This document shows, in pieces, positions 1,043-36,523 of a stretch of 42,541 nucleotides of DNA; position 1 is the stretch's first letter, and the number at the start of each line of letters is the position of its first letter. A model generated the notes under the pieces. It saw only the letters and a list, made by a program, of their open reading frames with translations, was not told where the DNA came from and searched no databases. Source of the stretch: a virus (Duplodnaviria; Heunggongvirae; Uroviricota; Caudoviricetes); the IMG/VR virus record IMGVR_UViG_2529293215_000009. One strand, given 5' to 3'. The position numbers and the translations under genes were made by a program.

Positions 1043-1356
1043 GTGGCTGGAAGAAGTGGCGCTGGGCTGAAATCCTGATACTCCGGCAGTGTGCGGGAAC
1101 GATGAGAGTCGAAAGCATCGGTTATCTGATTGGCCGTAGTGAGTCAGCCGTCAGGACGAAAGCGCGGGAACTGGGTATCAGCATGATGTTACGGGGTGAT
1201 TATCACCAGTCAGCCAAATGTTCACAGCGTGATATTGAGCTGGCGTGGCAACTGCATCAGCGTGGTGTACCCCGACGGGAAATTGCCGAAAAGTTTGGGA
1301 TGAAGTTGGGCGCAGTGAATAACTACGTTTATTTCGACAGGAGGGTTCAGGAGTGA
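1039..1356 (+). CDS. hypothetical HTH-like protein
   Basis: GTG at 1039 overlaps stop of upstream ORF (GTGA); motif [18 protein letters not shown] suggests HTH; start uncertain. Confidence 0.35.
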
Positions 1357-1655
1357 GGGTGAGGGTTTATATCGCCGGTCCGATGACGGGATATGAAAAT
1401 TTTAACCGCGAGGCATTTCACAAAACGGAAGAGGTGCTGAAACGGGAAGGGCATACCGTTTTAAACCCGGCAGTACTTCCGGACGGGCTGACTCAGCCAC
1501 ACTACATGGATATTTGCATGGCAATGCTCCGTTGCGTGGATGCGGTTTACATGCTGAAAGGCTGGCAGCAGTCGGCAGGTGCAGGGGCTGAGCTGGCACT
1601 GGAGGAGAAACCGGGCCATGCGGTGATTTTTCAGGAGGTGGGCAGTGAATATTGA
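1353..1655 (+). CDS. DUF4406-like prophage protein (nucleoside 2-deoxyribosyltransferase-like fold)
   Basis: N-terminus VYIAGPMTGYENFNREAF...GHTVLNPA typical of DUF4406 family found in lambdoid prophages; GTG start overlapping previous stop. Confidence 0.5.
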   Translation: MRVRVYIAGPMTGYENFNREAFHKTEEVLKREGHTVLNPAVLPDGLTQPHYMDICMAMLRCVDAVYMLKGWQQSAGAGAELALEEKPGHAVIFQEVGSEY

Positions 1656-1684
1656 CCCGGCGATAACGATTGATATGGCCCTGA

Positions 1685-1689
1685 ACGCC
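1685..1689. repeat. candidate 5-bp target-site duplication (ACGCC), left copy
   Basis: ACGCC directly precedes putative left terminus TGTAACC; identical pentamer at 40909..40913 directly after right terminus. Confidence 0.45.
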
Positions 1690-1862
1690 TGTAACCAGGT
1701 GAATCATTTGATACCAACGAGGGTTTTAGTGAAAGGAGGTGAAATCACCTGTAAGATACTGAAATAAAACAGGTGATGTCTGGATGAGCGCTTAAAGTCT
1801 ATTTGATACCGATTGTGCAATAATTAATCGTTTATTCTAAAATCGGCAAAACTTTTGATACT
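1690..1862 (+). repeat. left end (attL-like) with three TTTGATAC(C/T) putative transposase-binding repeats
   Basis: TTTGATACC at 1707..1715 and 1802..1810, TTTGATACT at 1854..1862; same motif in inverted orientation three times at right end; starts 5'-TGTA like Mu. Confidence 0.55.
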
Positions 1863-1939
1863 GCGATCTCAACTTTTTAAAGCGTTTAAAACTTCATTAA
1901 ATCTATATGGCAACTAACATACGGGCCAGCCTCGCCAAA

Positions 1940-2470
1940 CTAACCCGCTTTAGATTCTACCGGATTTGATTGCCTACTTGTCTCGGTTTTTTCCAAAATC
2001 TCTCTGACGCAATCGTCTGGCATATCTACAATCATCAACGCAGCCAGGCGCTTCCTGCCTTCTAGTTGTAATAAATCCTGGTTTTCTTTATCCAGCAGTG
2101 TCAGAACCGTCTCTACACCTTTGCGAGCAAGGAGATTGGTTAACTGTTCTCGTTCGTCTTTCGTAAGGAATGAAAGCATCTGTGTAAGTTGATCTCCCTT
2201 ATCACCAGAACAACCAAAATTACCACAAATACCAACATCGTTTGGTGATTCACCCTTGCCCTCTTTAAGCCACTCAAGACTAACTCCTTCACTTTCAGAA
2301 ATTCGTATAAGGATACTTTCTCTGGGGGCTGGTTGTGTTTGTCCTCCCTTGAAATAGCTGTTTAATGTGTTGATATTGATTCCCCACGCTCTGGCAGCTG
2401 CACTTCTTGAAGGGTAGCGCTTTGTAAGCATTCCAATACGTTCAATAACAGGTTCTTTTCCCTGCGACAT
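1940..2470 (-). CDS. c: prophage repressor (c-like), HTH DNA-binding
   Basis: Minus-strand ORF next to left end and divergent from ner as in Mu; HTH-like SRSAAARAWGININTLNSYFKGG; start taken at ATG 2470 (MSQGKEP) with upstream AGAGG. Confidence 0.65.
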   Translation of the reverse strand: MSQGKEPVIERIGMLTKRYPSRSAAARAWGININTLNSYFKGGQTQPAPRESILIRISESEGVSLEWLKEGKGESPNDVGICGNFGCSGDKGDQLTQMLSFLTKDEREQLTNLLARKGVETVLTLLDKENQDLLQLEGRKRLAALMIVDMPDDCVREILEKTETSRQSNPVESKAG

Positions 2471-2552
2471 AAAGATACCTCTTGGTGCTTTTCTAAGGAA
2501 AGGTTTCTTTCTATTTATCCAATTGAAAAATAAGGATAAAAGCAAAAATTAG

Positions 2553-2587
2553 CCAAAATACCAAAAATACCTTGATTTGGTATTTTT
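2553..2587. promoter_or_regulatory. operator-like repeats between c and ner
   Basis: CCAAAATACC AAAAATACC ttgattt GGTATTTTT: perfect 9-bp inverted repeat with 7-bp spacer plus a direct copy, in the divergent c/ner control region. Confidence 0.5.
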
Positions 2588-2600
2588 AGTGATGCATTAT

Positions 2601-2640
2601 TTACCCGTGCAGATATCCGCACGAATATCCGCGCGGGTAA
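2601..2640. promoter_or_regulatory. second operator-like element (inverted TTACCCG arms enclosing tandem ATATCCGC)
   Basis: TTACCCG at 2601..2607 and CGGGTAA at 2634..2640; ATATCCGC at 2613..2620 and 2625..2632, about 20 bp upstream of ner ATG. Confidence 0.4.
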
Positions 2641-2660
2641 CTTTTTAGAATAGAGGAAGT

Positions 2661-2909
2661 ATGAGTAGAAGAGAAGTTTCAGATCACGATTGGCCGCCTG
2701 AAATCATCAAGGCGCGCTTACACATGGCTGGCTTATCACTGCGCTCTTTATCTTTAAAGGCTGGTTACAGCAGGGATTCGCTGAAAAGCGTATTACGTAC
2801 TCCTTGCCGACCGTATCAGCAAATAATTGCTGATGCTCTTGGGGTATCGCCTGAAGAAATCTGGCCCAGTAGATACCAGGTTAAGAGCTATATGAGAAAG
2901 GCGTCATGA
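2661..2909 (+). CDS. ner: Ner-like DNA-binding regulator (Nlp/Ner family)
   Basis: 82 aa; C-terminal QQIIADALGVSPEEIWPSRYQ closely matches Mu Ner EQIIANALETKPEVIWPSRYQ; position immediately upstream of transposase. Confidence 0.85.
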   Translation: MSRREVSDHDWPPEIIKARLHMAGLSLRSLSLKAGYSRDSLKSVLRTPCRPYQQIIADALGVSPEEIWPSRYQVKSYMRKAS

Positions 2910-2910
2910 T

Positions 2911-5001
2911 ATGTATGTCATTGCAAAAGAACTGATTGGCGCGCCCGGAATGCCTGCTACAACAAAAGGTATTCGCCAGGCATTACAACGTTACGTACAA
3001 GGGAAAAGCTGTTGTTCCCGTCGTCGCTCAGGCTCTAAAGCAACTGAATACAGCATCGACTGTTTACCTGAAGTGACGCAGCAGGCATTACGTGAACGTT
3101 ATGCCCTGCAACTGATGACGCAAAAAGCCGATGAATCACCGGCTCCGGTAGTGACAAAGGCCAGGCGCTCACCTGCCGTGGTTGATGCGGTGGAGGCATA
3201 TCGCGGATCACCACAACTGATGGTCGAACGCCTTAATGCCCTGACTGAAAACCAGCGCCAGGTGGCTGATGCACGAATCGCGATCGTCAGCGAAGTTCTG
3301 AAAGTCGCGCAACAACCTGGTTTCAGCTGTGCGAAGGCTATCCGGTTTATCGTTGACAACCTGGCACGTTCGCAGCTGGACGAGCGCATTGTGGCAATGG
3401 TTGAGACGGCGAACGCCAAAAAGGGAAACAGCCGCGCGTTAAGTGAAATCACGCTGAAACGCTGGATTGCGGCCTTTAACAAGGCGCAGAACGCCGCTGA
3501 ACGCCTGCTTTTACTGGCACCGGGTAAGCGCCAGGAAATAAAAGCCGAAGATATTAACTGGCTGCCCGAATTTCTGGCGCAGTATCGCCAGTCAAACGGC
3601 CGACCAATGACCGAGGCTTACGAGGATTTTGTCGCTGAATGGCAGCACCGGCACGCTGATGAGCCTTATATGCTCGATATCATGCCGTCTTATGACACCA
3701 TTCGCCGCGCAATGAAGAAACTGCCGGAAGTGGTGAAACAAAAAGGCCGGGTGACCGGCAGTGAATACCGCCAGCTTGAGGGATTCACGCGCCGCGACTG
3801 GTCAAAAATGCCGGTGAATTATGTCTGGATTGGTGACGGTCACGGCATGAAGCTGAAATGCGCACACCCGGTTCACGGTCGGCCATTTGCACCGGAAGTG
3901 ACCTTTGTTATCGACGGTGGCACGCGCTTTGTGGTGGGCTGGAGCCTTGACCTGGCTGAAAATGTTTTCGCCGTAGCCGGTGCCATACAGCACGGCATTC
4001 GCCATCACGGCAAACCGTTTCTGTATTACTCGGATAACGGCTCCGGGGAAACCGCCGACATCCTGGATAAGGAGGTTGTGGGGATACTGCCGCGACTGGG
4101 GATTAATCACCCGACCGGGATTGCCGGTAATCCGCAGGGACGAGGCATTATCGAACGGCTTAACCGCACATTACCGATGCGCATAGCCCGTAAATACCGC
4201 ACCTATTTCGGGAAAGGTGCAGATCGCGAGACGTTACGCAAAACCAACCGCGATTTACGCTCGGCATTTACTGCCCTGCAACAGGGCAAACGGCTGAACG
4301 CCCGGCAGCAGTCAGCGATGCGTGATTTACCGTCCTGGTCTGAACTGATTGATGCCATTCGTGATGGTGTTGAGTGGTACAACAACCGGCCGCACGATGA
4401 ATTACCGGTGAAGCCGAACGGCAAGCATTACAGCCCGGCGGAGTTCAGAAAAAAACGCCTGGCGGAAGAGGACACGGAAATTGAATGGCTGTCCGATGTG
4501 GAATTGCGGGACATGTTCCGGCCGATGGTGGAACGCCCTGTAAGACGCTGTGAAATACGCTGGCTGAATAATATTTACTACGCGCCCGAGCTGCGTGATG
4601 AGCATGGCCGCAAGGTGCTTATCAGCTATGACATTCATGATGCCGAACGAATTACCGTACGTCGCCTGGATGGCAGCGTGATTTGCGAGGCGGTATGGGA
4701 CGGTAATAAACGCGAAGCCTTCCCGGTTAGCGCGGAATACTACAAACAGCAGCAACGCCTTAAAGGCATGCGTAAACGCGCAGAGGAAAAAATCCGTGAT
4801 GCCGAGGATGAGGTTGTCAACGTGCTGGAGCACAAGCCGCAGGAGCCCTGGCTGGAAAACATCTATCGCCCGGTAGGTAATACGGTGGCCGTTCAGCAAC
4901 CTGCCGTTGATGATGAGCCTGATGAAGAATACGAGCGCAATTTCCAGCGGGGATTGCAGTTGCTCGAAGCGAAATTAAAAGAAAATGACCCGCTGGCCTG
5001 A
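2911..5001 (+). CDS. A: Mu-type DDE transposase A
   Basis: 696 aa after ner; DDE-like blocks NYVWIGDGHGMK, LYYSDNGSGE, GNPQGRGIIERLNRTL; size and position as MuA. Confidence 0.9.
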   Translation: MYVIAKELIGAPGMPATTKGIRQALQRYVQGKSCCSRRRSGSKATEYSIDCLPEVTQQALRERYALQLMTQKADESPAPVVTKARRSPAVVDAVEAYRGSPQLMVERLNALTENQRQVADARIAIVSEVLKVAQQPGFSCAKAIRFIVDNLARSQLDERIVAMVETANAKKGNSRALSEITLKRWIAAFNKAQNAAERLLLLAPGKRQEIKAEDINWLPEFLAQYRQSNGRPMTEAYEDFVAEWQHRHADEPYMLDIMPSYDTIRRAMKKLPEVVKQKGRVTGSEYRQLEGFTRRDWSKMPVNYVWIGDGHGMKLKCAHPVHGRPFAPEVTFVIDGGTRFVVGWSLDLAENVFAVAGAIQHGIRHHGKPFLYYSDNGSGETADILDKEVVGILPRLGINHPTGIAGNPQGRGIIERLNRTLPMRIARKYRTYFGKGADRETLRKTNRDLRSAFTALQQGKRLNARQQSAMRDLPSWSELIDAIRDGVEWYNNRPHDELPVKPNGKHYSPAEFRKKRLAEEDTEIEWLSDVELRDMFRPMVERPVRRCEIRWLNNIYYAPELRDEHGRKVLISYDIHDAERITVRRLDGSVICEAVWDGNKREAFPVSAEYYKQQQRLKGMRKRAEEKIRDAEDEVVNVLEHKPQEPWLENIYRPVGNTVAVQQPAVDDEPDEEYERNFQRGLQLLEAKLKENDPLA

Positions 5002-5071
5002 AATAAAAAATAACCCGAGCGGCGACTCAGGTTATTTGATTAAACAAGGTATCAAATGAGAGGTTAATAAT

Positions 5072-6004
5072 ATGACTGATATTAACGATGTAATCAAGAC
5101 CATTGATGAACTTATTGATGGCGGCGTACTGACGCAGTATGCCATCGCCAGAGAGGCGGGAATTTCCGACGGCACATTATCGGCTTTCCGCAAGGGGAAA
5201 TATAAAGGCGATAACGCCGCTGTGGCTGCTTCCCTGCGTTCCTGGTATGAGAACTGGAATAAACAAAGCGCACTGCCGGAACCGCCGCAGTTTGTGGAAA
5301 CGCAGACAGTTCAGGAGCTGCGCGCACTGTTTCAGGCGGTTCGCCTGATGGGCTGTATTAACGTCATTGTGGGCGTGCCGGGGGTAGGTAAAACGGCCAC
5401 CGCCCGTAATTACTGCCAGGAGCAACCAAACACCTGGATGATCACCCTGTCACCCGCGCACTCCAGCGTCACGGAGTGTCTGCTGGAGCTGGCCGATGCG
5501 CTGGGGATTGATTACACCCGCGCGAACAAAGGGGCATTATCCCGCGCCATCCGCCGTCGCCTGATGGGAACGCGTGGACTGGTGATTGTGGATGAGGCGG
5601 ATCATCTTGGTATTGACGGTCTGGAGCAACTCCGGGCAATTCAGGACGCCACGGGGATCGGGATGGTGCTTATTGGTAACCCGCGCGGATTGTTTAAAGG
5701 TGGACGCCGCGCCTTTGATGATTTATCGCGCCTGTTCAGCCGTCTTGCCCGTACAAAACAACTTCGCAAGGCCAAAAAGGCGGATGTGCTGGCCATTGCC
5801 AGGGCATGGGGTATCAGTGGTGAGGCCGAGCTGGCCGTCATGCAGGCTATCGCTGAAAAGCCGGGAGCGTTACGCGTTCTGACACATACGCTTAACCAGG
5901 CGTGGCTCACCGCCAGCGGTGAAGGTGCGGCGCTGACAGAAAAACATATTAATGCGGCCTTTAAAGAGGTTTATACCAACCCTGAATTACTCTCACAGGT
6001 GTGA
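5072..6004 (+). CDS. B: Mu B-like transposition ATPase (AAA+)
   Basis: 310 aa; Walker A GVPGVGKT, Walker B LVIVDEADHLG; immediately after A. Confidence 0.9.
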   Translation: MTDINDVIKTIDELIDGGVLTQYAIAREAGISDGTLSAFRKGKYKGDNAAVAASLRSWYENWNKQSALPEPPQFVETQTVQELRALFQAVRLMGCINVIVGVPGVGKTATARNYCQEQPNTWMITLSPAHSSVTECLLELADALGIDYTRANKGALSRAIRRRLMGTRGLVIVDEADHLGIDGLEQLRAIQDATGIGMVLIGNPRGLFKGGRRAFDDLSRLFSRLARTKQLRKAKKADVLAIARAWGISGEAELAVMQAIAEKPGALRVLTHTLNQAWLTASGEGAALTEKHINAAFKEVYTNPELLSQV

Positions 6005-6006
6005 TT

Positions 6007-6228
6007 ATGGCGGTATTTTATATTCCTGATATTTACGGACGCTTTTACCTGGTTAATTTCGATAACGTGAAGGTGATTTCACTGGCCGAAAATAAAGAAT
6101 GTGGCGATTTACTTTTTGAATTTAATGACCGCACACGAATGGTGATATCTGCCGGACTTGATCGCGAAGGTGCGACAGAAGTTTACAGCGGAATATGCCG
6201 TTCTGTTGGTGCGAAACAAGTCAGCTAA
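6007..6228 (+). CDS. hypothetical protein (accessory early region)
   Basis: ORF 6001..6228; ATG at 6007 just after B stop; no recognisable motif. Confidence 0.4.
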   Translation: MAVFYIPDIYGRFYLVNFDNVKVISLAENKECGDLLFEFNDRTRMVISAGLDREGATEVYSGICRSVGAKQVS

Positions 6229-6240
6229 ATGAGGTGTTAT

Positions 6241-6495
6241 ATGAATATGCAATCCTGCGGTAACAAAATGAATTTATTCGACTCCCTGAACAGCGCGCGC
6301 CGTCTGACCGAACTTGCCGGTGCGGTACTGGAACGCAGTAAGCGCTACCCACAACGTTTTGCACTGAAAACCACGCCGCCGGTAGGCAACGTGCAGGGAA
6401 CCGGTGAAATTGAAATCACCATACAGACCAACGGCCTGCGCCGCCGTGTGAAGGCCACCCGCATCAGCGGCTGCACGGTTTACTGGGAGGTGTGA
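6241..6495 (+). CDS. hypothetical protein (accessory early region)
   Basis: ORF 6229..6495; GAGGTG then ATG at 6241. Confidence 0.4.
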   Translation: MNMQSCGNKMNLFDSLNSARRLTELAGAVLERSKRYPQRFALKTTPPVGNVQGTGEIEITIQTNGLRRRVKATRISGCTVYWEV

Positions 6496-6496
6496 G

Positions 6497-6778
6497 GTGA
6501 AAAAAAATCTCATTGCATGGGCGTGGTCGAGTGGTCTTATTGAGTTTGGTTACGTCCTGCCGGAAGGTGCATTGCCGATAGTTGCCGGAAAGCCTGCCAC
6601 GGTACGGCATGTGATTGAGGTTATGGCGCGTCATGGACGTGATGAACAGGAGCAGTTACTGGTTCCGGGGATACCGGAAGCGGTGACGGAGGAAGAAGCC
6701 TTTAATGCCATGATTCGGTTCTGCCGTGAGGTCAGACGCCGGGTCAGTTATCCAAACAGAACGAGGACCAGAGGATGA
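6497..6778 (+). CDS. hypothetical protein (accessory early region)
   Basis: GTG start preceded by GGAGGTGTGAGG; 93 aa; tightly packed in operon. Confidence 0.4.
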   Translation: MKKNLIAWAWSSGLIEFGYVLPEGALPIVAGKPATVRHVIEVMARHGRDEQEQLLVPGIPEAVTEEEAFNAMIRFCREVRRRVSYPNRTRTRG

Positions 6779-7047
6779 GTAAAGTCGTACGCATTATTTT
6801 CGAATACAAGGAGCACGTTATCCATAAAAACGCTGATGGAACAGTGCGCATGGGGGTAAGTCTGGACATACGTTCAACCGGGATAAAGCAGAAAGGTGAT
6901 GGACCCGCCATGATTTTTGGGGTGGTTATGCTCGCGGAAAGCAGAGACTTTGCTGAACTTGTGGCAATGAAAGCCAGTGCGCTCATGAAAGATATGAGCA
7001 TGCGTTCCGGGGTTATTAAAGGTAATGAATTTAATCAGCAGGGGTAA
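6775..7047 (+). CDS. hypothetical protein, paralog 1 of a tandem pair
   Basis: N-terminus MSKVVRIIFEYKEHVIHKNADGTV parallels the next ORF. Confidence 0.45.
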   Translation: MSKVVRIIFEYKEHVIHKNADGTVRMGVSLDIRSTGIKQKGDGPAMIFGVVMLAESRDFAELVAMKASALMKDMSMRSGVIKGNEFNQQG

Positions 7048-7051
7048 TTCC

Positions 7052-7345
7052 ATGAGCAAAGTACGCGTTATTTTTGAATTTAAGCATGTTTCGCATGACG
7101 AAAAACCGGCAGGCAATGACTGTGTTGAAGTGCATGAAAAGATTGGTGTGGATGTAAAAACAGAACGTGATACGAATAACAGGCCGACGTCACTCTGTGA
7201 CGTTTATGCAAGTATTCTCCAGTATCACAGCCCTGAAATTATTCAGTTTCTCTCAGCGGAATTTCAGGCATCTGTACAGGCTTTTGGGGCGGATGCCATC
7301 ATTAAACGCCACCGCGTGCATAAAGCATCAGGCACACTGCAATAA
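7052..7345 (+). CDS. hypothetical protein, paralog 2 of a tandem pair
   Basis: ORF 7025..7345, ATG at 7052; N-terminus MSKVRVIFEFKHVSHDEKPAGNDCV parallels the previous ORF. Confidence 0.45.
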   Translation: MSKVRVIFEFKHVSHDEKPAGNDCVEVHEKIGVDVKTERDTNNRPTSLCDVYASILQYHSPEIIQFLSAEFQASVQAFGADAIIKRHRVHKASGTLQ

Positions 7346-19834: not shown

Positions 19835-19955
19835 CGGTCAGTGGCGGGGGTTGAACCCGCATACATGATCCACCCGGAGGCAGGCACCGACTTTACCAGT
19901 TAAGCGTACACTGACCGCCTGTTTATTTTATATTCATCCTTTATGCGGAGGCAAT

Positions 19956-33440: not shown

Positions 33441-33991
33441 CCCTGACCCCGCATCAGCGTGCCCTGTTGCAGTTGCTGCCTGACGGGCTGGCATGGGATA
33501 AGCGGCCGTCATCCGTTCTTGCGGCTTTGTGCCTGGGCCTCAGTCATTCCACGGAGCGTGTTTCCTGGACCGGTAACCAGATGCTGGCAGAACGTTTTCC
33601 TGATTCATCCCGTCTGCTGCTGGAAGACTGGGAGCGTTATCTGGGGTTACCGGAATGTGATATGACCGGCGCAACAATTCAGGAGCGTCAGCGTTATGCC
33701 GGGAATAAATACCGGATGAAACCCTCTCTTAACCGTGAATTTTATATCCGGTTTGCGGCAGAGTTTGGTTATGAAATAGATATTCAGCCATCACCGGATT
33801 CACAGTGGGTCAGTATTGTCACGATTAACAGTGAAACCGGCTACCGGAATATGAATGTGCTGGATGATATTCTCACGCCGCTGCGTATTTATGAAGGCGG
33901 TGCGCTGGAATGTATTCTGAACCGTTATAAGCCTGCATGGCAGACGTTTATTTACGTGTATGCAAACAGCCATGAAGAGGAGACTATTTAA
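33431..33991 (+). CDS. tail protein (Mu gp48 position)
   Basis: 186 aa immediately upstream of tail fibre gene. Confidence 0.6.
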   Translation: MAVTLTPHQRALLQLLPDGLAWDKRPSSVLAALCLGLSHSTERVSWTGNQMLAERFPDSSRLLLEDWERYLGLPECDMTGATIQERQRYAGNKYRMKPSLNREFYIRFAAEFGYEIDIQPSPDSQWVSIVTINSETGYRNMNVLDDILTPLRIYEGGALECILNRYKPAWQTFIYVYANSHEEETI

Positions 33992-34902
33992 TGTTTCATG
34001 TTGATAATAATTCCGGCGTGGCGAATATGCCTGCGCTGGCACCGGCGCAGAGTAATACCACCACCTGGTTTACCGAAGGTGACGGACAAAAAGGTATCAG
34101 CTGGATTGGTCAGGACTGGCTGAATATTCTCCAGGCCGAACTGCTGAATATTCTGGCTGAAGCCAGTATTCAGCCGGATAAGGCGCAGTTAAACCAGCTT
34201 ACGCTGTCCATTAAAGCCATTATCGCTGCGAATGCCTTTTCCCGGAAAAACAACCTGAAAGAAATTGCTGATGCCGGTGCGGAAGCCCAGCGTCTTGCCC
34301 GTGGTTATCTTGGTCTTGGGGCGCTTGCCACAAAAAACAGTCTTGGTCCCGGTGACGTTAATGCTCTGGCGAAGGATCAGAACCTTGCCGACCTGGAGAA
34401 TGCGGGAACCGCCCGTAATAATCTGGATGTTTACAGCAAAAGCGAAGGTGATAACCGTTACCTGCGCAGGGAGCAGAACGGCGCAGACATTCCGGATAAA
34501 GGCGCTTTTATCGATAACGTCGGTTTACGGGAAACGGTAAATAAGGCTGCTGATGCCCTGCCATCGGGTGGAACCGCCGTGGCAGCAAACAGACTCGCCA
34601 CCCCAAGAAATATTAATGGCGTTCCTTTTGACGGAACGCAGGATATCAACATCACGTCAGGAATGACGCAGTCAACCGCAGATGGCCGGTATGTACAGAA
34701 TGTTCAGCTTGGAGCACAGAGCTATCATTCACCCGGAGGCAATGAAATATCATGGAATTACAGCGCACCTTCCGGTTGTATGCTTTCCGGTATTAACGTG
34801 CAGGAAACCGGCTCCCGGTCTGCGGACAATATCGGTGGGGTCTATTATCGCCCGGTTCAGATTTATATTAATAATGCCTGGAGAACGGTAAGTTCAGTGT
34901 AA
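33991..34902 (+). CDS. S: tail fibre protein S (constant part 33991..34520 fused to variable part Sv 34521..34902)
   Basis: 303 aa; gix-like site inside coding sequence at 34508..34533; C-terminal YYRPVQIYINNAWRTVSSV parallels the inverted cassette on the other strand. Confidence 0.8.
   Translation: MFHVDNNSGVANMPALAPAQSNTTTWFTEGDGQKGISWIGQDWLNILQAELLNILAEASIQPDKAQLNQLTLSIKAIIAANAFSRKNNLKEIADAGAEAQRLARGYLGLGALATKNSLGPGDVNALAKDQNLADLENAGTARNNLDVYSKSEGDNRYLRREQNGADIPDKGAFIDNVGLRETVNKAADALPSGGTAVAANRLATPRNINGVPFDGTQDINITSGMTQSTADGRYVQNVQLGAQSYHSPGGNEISWNYSAPSGCMLSGINVQETGSRSADNIGGVYYRPVQIYINNAWRTVSSV
34508..34533. promoter_or_regulatory. gix-like recombination site (left), inside S
   Basis: TTATCGATAACG TC GGTTTACGGGAA; resembles Gin/Hin site consensus TTATCCAAAACCTCGGTTTACAGGAA; core TCGGTTTACGGGA shared with right site in inverted orientation. 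Confidence 0.7.
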
Positions 34903-34936
34903 ACCACAGAAAAGGGTGCTGAATGCACCCTCTGAA

Positions 34937-35458
34937 TTATTCCGGTTTTTCCGGCCAGGGAATCGCCTGGTAATGCCCCTCACTGGCAATATCATTAAAG
35001 TGCATTTCTTTAAGCTGTCGGATATACGCCATCCAGCGCGTCAGCTGTAATTTATTTTCATCGCTAATCATGTCCAGTTTTAATTCTGTTTTCCAGTCAT
35101 CCACGGTTTCGTTGGCTTCCTGGAGCAGCGATGAGCGACGCTTTTCAGCAACCGTCTTCCAGTTTACCGGCACCTTTGATATCAGGCCATCAGAACACTG
35201 CCAGTTACCGTCAATATTCACACCTTCCGGCAGTTCGTCCACTTCAACAACAGTAAAACCTGCCGGATATAAAGCAGAGACATCTTCAGCAACAGAGCAG
35301 ATAATACCCGTTACAGGCGAAATACAGAGTTTGTATTTCTTTGTGAAAAGCGGGATAGATTCATAAAAATCCCTTCCGTCCTCACTCTGGAAATACTGAA
35401 CATCCTCACCATAGGGTTTGTGTTCCGGGTAATATCGTTTTACGTTAATAAGCTCCAT
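34937..35458 (-). CDS. tail fibre assembly protein (Tfa, U-prime equivalent)
   Basis: ORF 34937..35569; ATG at 35458 preceded by AAGGTG; C-terminus WMAYIRQLKEMHFND...AIPWPEKPE resembles Tfa family. Confidence 0.7.
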   Translation of the reverse strand: MELINVKRYYPEHKPYGEDVQYFQSEDGRDFYESIPLFTKKYKLCISPVTGIICSVAEDVSALYPAGFTVVEVDELPEGVNIDGNWQCSDGLISKVPVNWKTVAEKRRSSLLQEANETVDDWKTELKLDMISDENKLQLTRWMAYIRQLKEMHFNDIASEGHYQAIPWPEKPE

Positions 35459-35537
35459 TATTTCACCTTGTTTTTGTTGAAAAGACAAAATCATCATATA
35501 TTTATTCAGATAATCTGTTTTTTGAACTACTGCACTT

Positions 35538-35896
35538 TTATGCGCTGGAAGCTGTTTTCCACGAACCATCTATCAGAAACTGAACAGGTCGATAATATGC
35601 GGTTACCGTTGCATTACCATCACCAGCGACATCAAGCCCTGTAAGTACGCATCCGTCAGGAACTTCAAAAATATTATATTGCATTCCAATCGTTGACCTT
35701 GAACCTCTTCGAATGCTTTGAACATAACGTGAGTCAGCCACAGACTGCGTCATCCCCGATGTAATATTTATATCCTGCGTTCCGTCAAATGGGACACCAT
35801 TAATATTTCTTGGAGTGGCGAGTTTATTCGCTGCAACAGCCGTTCCGTTCGATGGCAGGGCATTCGCGGCCCTGTTTACAGTATCCCGTAAACCGA
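35538..35896 (-). CDS. promoterless alternative tail-fibre C-terminal cassette (Sv-prime)
   Basis: Minus frame open from gixR to stop at 35538..35540; encodes NLGLRDTVNRAANALPSNGTAVAANKLATPRNINGVPFDGTQDINITSGMTQS..., parallel to Sv; no start codon. Confidence 0.7.
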
Positions 35897-35908
35897 GGTT
35901 TCAGGGAT
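35883..35908. promoter_or_regulatory. gix-like recombination site (right), adjacent to gin
   Basis: ATCCCGTAAACC GA GGTTTCAGGGAT, half-sites 10/12 palindromic; central GA complements the TC of the left site. Confidence 0.7.
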
Positions 35909-35962
35909 GCCGTATATCTGCTTTAAAAGGCCTTTCCACCTCTTTTTAAGGAAGGTAAATAC

Positions 35963-36523
35963 ATGCTGATTGGCTATATACGCGTATCAACAAATGACCA
36001 GAACACCGGTTTACAAAGAAATGCGCTGGAATGTGCAGGATGTGAGCAGATTTTTGAAGACAAAATGAGTGGTAAAACGACACAGCGGCCGGGACTGAAG
36101 CGGGCACTGAAGAAACTAAAACCCGGTGACACACTGATGGTCTGGAAACTGGACAGGCTGGGGCGCAGTATGCGCCACCTTGTTGCGCTGACAGATGAAT
36201 TACAGCAACAGGGGATAAATTTTCGTAGTCTTACTGACAACATTGATACGTCAACCCCCATGGGGCGCTTCTTTTTTCACATAATGGGTGCGCTGGCAGA
36301 AATGGAGCGTGAATTAATTGTCGAACGGACACGGGCTGGTCTTGCAGCTGCCCGTGAAAGGGGACGAACCGGCGGCAGACCCCGTCGTCTCACGCAGGAA
36401 CAATACGAGCAGGTCGGGCGTTTACTGGCCGGGGGTGTCAGTCGAAGACAGGTGGCACTTATTTTTGATATCGGCCTTTCAACCCTTTATCGTTATTATC
36501 CTGCGAGCGTTTCGGAAAAATAA
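35963..36523 (+). CDS. gin: serine DNA invertase (Gin/Hin/Pin family)
   Basis: 186 aa; N-terminal MLIGYIRVSTNDQ with catalytic Ser context, C-terminal HTH; immediately next to gix-like site. Confidence 0.92.
   Translation: MLIGYIRVSTNDQNTGLQRNALECAGCEQIFEDKMSGKTTQRPGLKRALKKLKPGDTLMVWKLDRLGRSMRHLVALTDELQQQGINFRSLTDNIDTSTPMGRFFFHIMGALAEMERELIVERTRAGLAAARERGRTGGRPRRLTQEQYEQVGRLLAGGVSRRQVALIFDIGLSTLYRYYPASVSEK

Follow-up and report, generated by a model that had tools for sequence, protein, structure and literature searches.

A compact invertible segment with a single assembly gene in the tail-fibre region of an Sp18-like prophage of Escherichia coli O157:H7

The DNA analysed here is a stretch of 42,541 nt (IMG/VR virus record IMGVR_UViG_2529293215_000009; hereafter the window), which holds a complete Mu-like prophage. 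Escherichia coli O157:H7 strain NE 1092-2 (NZ_CP038328.1, 2929766-2972306) matches the 42.5-kb window at 100% identity, and the insertion point of the prophage is the ycj sugar-transport operon. We focus on the region that runs from the tail-fibre gene S to gin, the gene for a serine DNA invertase, in which a short segment inverts and exchanges the end of the fibre. From S to gin, the window differs from prophage Sp18 of strain Sakai (ECs_4989-ECs_4992) at 15 out of 2533 nt (99.4% identity), with the same gene order and orientation. Judged by this similarity, the window prophage is an Sp18-type Mu-like prophage of E. coli O157:H7, the same element as Sakai Sp18, although Sakai Sp18 is inserted in sorM and the window copy in the ycj operon. 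The element was already known (Asadulghani et al.) and was flagged as invertible in 2009, when the host-specificity region of Sp18 was stated to be invertible and to have genes distinct from those of Mu (PMC2669165); it is ordinary in kind.

Anatomy of the segment

A 19-nt degenerate gix pattern occurs at exactly two places in the 42.5 kb (gixL and gixR, Table 1), against a chance expectation of 0.07, and the same scan found no third gix site within the window. A preliminary description of this DNA had proposed two inverted gix-like sites here, and both are present: each is 26 bp long, they are in inverted orientation with identical TC cores, and gixL agrees with the gixL site of Mu at 22 of 26 positions (hand count) and lies at the homologous point of the fibre gene. 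The distance from crossover point to crossover point is 1377 bp, while the annotated boundaries of the Mu G segment are 3059 bp apart, so the earlier estimate of less than half the Mu G segment holds. The segment is compact because its cassettes are short and because it has one assembly gene where Mu has two.

Table 1. Features of the invertible segment and its surroundings (positions in the window)
Feature	Position	Strand	Remarks
Tail-fibre gene S, whole open reading frame	33991-34902	+	303 amino acids (aa)
Constant 5' part of S (Sc, codons 1-176)	33991-34519	+	not moved by inversion
gixL, inside the S reading frame	34508-34533	+	TTATCGATAACG TC GGTTTACGGGAA; central TC at 34520-34521
Left inverted arm	34516-34697	+	encodes conserved start of tip A
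Tip cassette A	34522-34902	+	126 codons + stop; expressed in window orientation; no assembly gene behind
GC-rich hairpin	34911-34933	both	between convergent S and tfa stops; T-run on minus strand; terminator-like
tfa, sole tail-fibre assembly gene of the segment	34937-35458	-	173 aa; antisense to S here
AT-rich spacer, cassette B to tfa	35459-35537	-	79 nt
Silent tip cassette B	35538-35894	-	118 codons + stop, without start codon; joins Sc after inversion
Right inverted arm	35719-35900	-	encodes conserved start of tip B
gixR, overlapping cassette B start	35883-35908	+	ATCCCGTAAACC GA GGTTTCAGGGAT; central GA at 35895-35896
gin, serine DNA invertase	35963-36523	+	186 aa

When the segment is flipped in silico at the core, Sc is joined in frame to cassette B and encodes a fibre of 295 aa, versus 303 aa for the unflipped version; the in-frame fusion of constant exon to cassette also holds in 20 related loci. 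The two inverted arms (182 nt each, 79% complementary, with 1021 nt in between) encode the near-identical peptides in opposite orientation noted in the preliminary description (48 of 54 residues are identical, and ATPRNINGVPFDGTQDINITSGMTQS is common to both). The C-terminal tips then diverge, also as described, with 28 identical residues over 66 aligned positions, and both are in frame with Sc.

The fibre is a shortened Mu S protein. Its residues 1-198 are 46% identical to residues 1-191 of Mu S, and the distal 72 residues of tip A (231-302) are 41% identical to Mu S 437-503; the middle of Mu S (about 240 residues) is absent. The whole fibre matches the PHROG 1833 tail-fibre family (E 3e-166), and by this match the short fibre belongs to an established phage family; a Pfam search with the fibre protein gave no family at thresholds up to E 10. 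Purifying selection acts on every cassette.

The gin gene is intact. Its product has Pfam Resolvase (E 1e-51) and HTH_7 (E 2e-14) domains, aligns with Mu Gin without gaps over 181 residues at 76% identity, and retains the RVSTNDQ motif with the catalytic serine. The locus thus has the following features of a Din-family system: a small recombinase with a helix-turn-helix domain adjoining the segment, paired inverted sites, and inversion at the core (see below).

Annotation of an invertible cassette has left two artefacts in the RefSeq gene calls of this region: a stand-alone 'tail fiber protein' made up of the final 67 silent-cassette codons (35538-35741, minus strand), and a spurious antisense open reading frame of 61 codons (35764-35949, plus strand), drawn as a 'hypothetical protein' over the right arm and gixR. 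Single IMG/VR copies indicate that one alternative tip does decay sometimes: in one locus (L049) the tip A cassette is broken and down to 36 codons, and in another (L064) the tip B cassette is frameshifted, leaving 99 codons with an unrelated tail.

Inversion in natural genomes and its route

Both the window sequence and its in-silico flipped version served as queries against 5,426 complete E. coli genomes, and a record was counted if at least 80% of the query was matched in one piece. The window orientation was found in 182 records and the flipped one in 23, many of these genomes being clonal O157. Among Sp18-type loci of IMG/VR, tfa is on the minus strand in 22 and on the plus strand in six. 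Both orientations therefore exist, rather than only one, as the switch proposed in the preliminary description entails.

Closely related copies that differ in orientation locate the exchange. For example, the locus of strain 2012C-4502 (L001, flipped), once turned back at the core, is identical to that of strain 2013C-4081 (L002, in the window orientation) over locus positions 1352-7061, a stretch that covers the whole switch. In another example, strain 8479 carries two copies of the prophage, a flipped one on the chromosome and one in the window orientation on plasmid p8479-1, and the two are identical over 8702 bp after flipping of the 1377 bp. One IMG genome also has two loci in opposite orientation (L046 and L056) with identical cassette and Tfa proteins. 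The crossover could be confined to an interval that includes the gix core, of 13 bp (window type versus FORC_044) or 28 bp (the 8479 and L001/L002 pairs), because differences between the outer half-sites reach as far as the core and those between the arms begin at position +11. Inversion thus occurs in nature, and the mapped crossovers are at the gix core. Ten IMG/VR contigs stop between about 20 nt before and 150 nt after gixL, as would be expected from cultures mixed in orientation.

The cores themselves have changed in pairs. Sakai Sp18 (L023; NC_002695.2, 5070000-5080500) has TT at gixL and AA at gixR, whereas the window has TC and GA (changed positions 34521 and 35895). The exact TT form of gixL is found in 89 records and is the commoner form among window-orientation records; the TT records that also appear in the gixR list have AA at gixR, with or without a 1-bp insertion. 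Flipped junctions occur with TT cores and with TC cores. Serine invertases make two-base overhangs that must match, and both cores have changed together, which is therefore natural evidence that the sites are kept functional; it gives a population-level illustration of the matching-core rule.

The preliminary description had allowed for two routes, Gin at gix and homologous recombination between the arms, and only the former is borne out. It is highly improbable that RecA-dependent homologous recombination between the 182-nt arms accounts for inversion, whether in whole or in part. Such arms are present and 79% identical, and at the start of the right arm of four loci (L001, L002, L017 and L018) a 26-nt patch has been converted to left-arm sequence, pointing to some exchange between arms. 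But the longest exact match between the arms is 20 bp, and the minimal efficient pairing segment in E. coli is above 20 bp. From arm to arm, the nonsynonymous rate (dN) is 0.071 and the synonymous rate (dS) is 1.06 (dN/dS 0.067), so that synonymous sites are near saturation and the arms are not being homogenised. The natural crossovers fall within 13-28 bp around the core, and a site-by-site comparison found reciprocally chimeric arms in none of 10 loci. Being non-reciprocal and directly next to the crossover site, the 26-nt patch is better explained by local conversion during site-specific exchange; it looks like the local conversion that has reportedly been seen at the cix sites of P1. Since dS is near saturation and exact runs are at most 20 bp, the similarity of the arms therefore reflects selection on the encoded peptide, and the arms are the conserved peptide-coding start of both cassettes rather than a recombination substrate.

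The lineage with the patch (L001, L002, L017 and L018) also has a 1-bp insertion in the outer half of gixR (GAAAACC for GAAACC), and patch and insertion together correspond to about 35870-35908 of the window. This lineage, to which the strain 8479 pair belongs, still inverts.

We are confident that the segment is the G-segment equivalent of the Sp18-type prophage, i.e. a switch of the Gin/Din family that exchanges the C-terminal third of the tail fibre. Gin, encoded just right of the segment, would pair gixL (inside S) with the inverted gixR, cut both at the identical central dinucleotide and rotate the 1377 bp between them. In the window orientation, Sc and tip A would make up the 303-aa fibre; after inversion, Sc would continue in frame into tip B to give the 295-aa fibre, with tfa directly downstream and co-transcribed. 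Cutting is presumably done by the Gin of this phage, helped by host Fis and an enhancer, and tips A and B may bind different receptors; the two receptor specificities put forward in the preliminary description are plausible.

Several points weigh against this reading. The orientation counts (182 and 23) are not independent, given the many clonal O157 genomes. A Fis-bound recombinational enhancer is expected in cis, and the 5' part of gin contains it in Mu; over its first 180 nt, gin has 67-87% identity to Mu, but only one 15-mer with the Fis consensus (GTGCAGGATGTGAGC, from 36033) is shared with Mu at the homologous position, and no clear partner for it emerged at the spacing expected. Finally, another Din-family invertase in the same cell, instead of this gin, may be the one that inverts the segment.

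One assembly gene for two tips

The product of tfa matches Pfam family Caudo_TAP (E 5e-18) and PHROG 136, and it is 28-30% identical to Mu U and U'. It is the only Caudo_TAP gene in the segment, and the stops of S and tfa are 34 nt apart, without room for a remnant of another. The Mu/P1-type plan of one assembly gene per tip (S-U and S'-U') is thus not found here: tfa follows cassette B only, so that it runs in the direction of the silent tip and is antisense to the tip that is expressed. A hidden chaperone gene for tip A, antisense to tfa, was considered and rejected (the open stretch of 130 codons in the window allele is down to 67 in diverged alleles). The tfa gene is under purifying selection (dN/dS 0.105).

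Exactly one tfa is found in all 28 Sp18-type IMG/VR loci that include tfa, and the loci with a single tfa span lineages whose tfa genes are about 60% and gin genes 81% identical. In the Sp18-type loci the cassette without tfa always has a type-A tip (126 or 116 codons), while the cassette adjacent to tfa is of three unrelated types (118, 121 or 119 codons); each cassette combination is found in both orientations. Two more distant relatives (L066 and L067) have two tfa genes, and in L067, for which both sites were found, the segment is 2.9 kb long.

A similar layout recurs outside this group. A scan of GTDB species gave only two informative relatives, one of them cut by a contig end. A prophage of Citrobacter braakii ATCC 51113 (L006, which is IMG/VR L071) has, as here, S, an opposite-strand tfa, silent cassettes and gin, and the N-terminal part of S (residues 1-147) is 73% identical between the two. 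It has three gix-like sites (one in S and two inverted), three tips and a single tfa of 229 aa (L006 6819-9230), and appears to be a multi-inversion version of the one-chaperone layout. Unlike the window prophage, it carries a collagen-like second fibre with its own tfa after gin. That the layout is kept across lineages with tfa only about 60% and gin 81% identical, and recurs in Citrobacter, argues that it is selected and not a product of decay.

How tip A is assembled may be explained in several ways. It is quite conceivable that both tips are served by the one Tfa and that it is produced whichever way the segment lies: in the flipped state the late S operon transcript would supply it, and in the window state a leftward promoter of its own, located either upstream of the silent cassette or within the spacer, would do so. 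The spacer before tfa is long and AT-rich in every allele (79, 121, 51 and 69 nt), versus 2 nt in Mu. Tfa has its closest outside relative in Rac-SA53, with 53% identity over the whole protein and 66% in the N-terminal part that binds the fibre; the Rac-SA53 tfa lies directly behind a fibre with a tip 70% identical to tip A. For tip B, in contrast, the nearest relative is in Hafnia phage yong1 (59%), whose Tfa is only about 35% identical. One Tfa allele also adjoins two unrelated B tips (B1 and B2). The pairing in Rac-SA53 and this shared allele suggest a generalist Tfa, which may serve tip A too. In arrays of sense oligonucleotides on a Sakai lysogen, which is in the window orientation, ECs4990 (tfa) and ECs4991 (the silent cassette) rose together at stationary-phase entry (2.13-fold and 2.12-fold, PMC2241611), hinting at a leftward transcript in that orientation; the change, however, is small and was seen in a lysogen, not in late lytic expression. 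Nor did the minus strand upstream of tfa reveal a convincing sigma-70 promoter, in either a tool scan or a relaxed scan: the best promoter-like feature is a perfect TATAAT (35678-35673, minus strand) in cassette B, about 215 nt upstream of tfa, with a poor -35 element. The spacers of different alleles have no common motif, and a comparison of late-operon upstream regions with the tfa spacer showed no obvious shared late-promoter motif. Covariation of Tfa with tip A or with tip B over 16 allele combinations did not discriminate either, as the correlations are much alike (0.58-0.77) and shared ancestry confounds them.

Somewhat more doubtful is the idea that tip A needs no co-expressed Tfa, either folding alone or borrowing the Tfa of another prophage, in which case the switch would toggle between a Tfa-free fibre and a Tfa-assisted, Tfa-capped one. 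The constancy of the type-A tip in the tfa-less cassette of all Sp18-type loci, next to the three types in the tfa-adjacent one, is in keeping with it, as is purifying selection on tip A in this context (dN/dS 0.12 in comparison with a diverged allele). O157 genomes also contain many other tfa genes from which to borrow. The presence or absence of Tfa on the particle could matter, given that Mu Tfa, as summarised in PMC9608196, is still attached to the mature fibre and has a part in host recognition. Yet the relatives of this tip in P2-like phages, Rac-SA53, SfMu and Mu all sit in phages that carry tfa, which in Rac-SA53 and Mu is directly downstream of the fibre gene, and the Citrobacter relative has a type-A-like tip directly upstream of tfa. 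If the window orientation were instead a non-productive 'off' state, its fibre lacking a chaperone and only the flipped state being infectious, the antisense position of tfa relative to the late operon would be accounted for. This is unlikely: tip A is intact and under purifying selection across lineages with tfa only about 60% identical, the window orientation is the commoner one in genomes, and Sakai, which has that orientation, releases Mu-like particles (PMC2669165).

We tentatively propose that the one-chaperone design is functional and alters the switch, either through a generalist Tfa supplied from both sides or through a toggle between Tfa-free and Tfa-capped fibres. Since mature Mu fibres retain their Tfa, which binds host surfaces, the toggle, if true, would bring a second level into host-range switching. 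A literature search, incomplete in its coverage, found no paper on the single-tfa layout or on the paired core change. If this locus can teach anything new, it is only through its one shared assembly gene, on how fibre chaperones are matched to tips.

Related switches and the rest of the prophage

Host-range switching of phages by DNA inversion is a textbook class. The C segment of P1 with Cin, the P segment of e14 with Pin and the Min system of p15B are all served by Din-family invertases and switch tail-fibre C-termini. P1, Mu and e14 have one assembly gene per tip and p15B has many cassettes. The e14 segment is compact as well (about 1.8 kb) and adjoins the Mu-gp48-like gene ymfQ. P1 has near-identical inverted repeats of about 0.6 kb inside its segment, whereas the window arms are 79% identical. 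In surveys of programmed inversions, tail-fibre genes are a major class (PMC9881135).

The closest comparison is with the Mu G segment, which has homologous gix sites at the same place in S with the same TC core; gin immediately right of the segment, with com-mom further on, is also common to both prophages. The differences lie in the cassettes (118-126 codons in the window, with the middle part of Mu S missing), in the assembly genes (one tfa versus U and U', the latter two 2 nt behind S and S') and in the inverted similarity, which here reaches some 180 nt inward from the sites (79% identity), while Mu is described with 34-bp repeats. Four extra genes in the gin-com interval of the window prophage also set it apart from Mu.

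The element sits in hundreds of sequenced genomes of Shiga-toxin-producing E. coli. Its orientation varies between otherwise identical copies, which matters for the typing of O157 prophages and for comparative genomics, and the practical consequences are the RefSeq misannotation and the assemblies that break at the site.

The gene plan of the prophage is of the Mu type: repressor, a ner-like gene, Mu transposase, a B-like ATPase, gam and a Mor-family activator are followed by lysis, head, sheath, tube and baseplate genes, then tail fibre and invertase, and last com and mom. In the head-gene region, RefSeq places a 'tRNA-OTHER' (19857-19936, minus strand), which ARAGORN did not confirm, as it found no tRNA in the whole window. 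The first of the four genes between gin and com encodes a 679-aa protein (36623-38662, plus strand) with a sialate-O-acetylesterase-type SASA domain and DUF6645, and the three small genes after it lie at 38809-39767; this block has no Mu counterpart at that position and looks like a cargo ('moron') block. The mom gene (40044-40781, plus strand) is 100% identical to Sakai ECs_4998 and is missing from the RefSeq annotation of this strain, in which a 'ycjN pseudogene with internal stop' (40135-41427, minus strand) is drawn across it.

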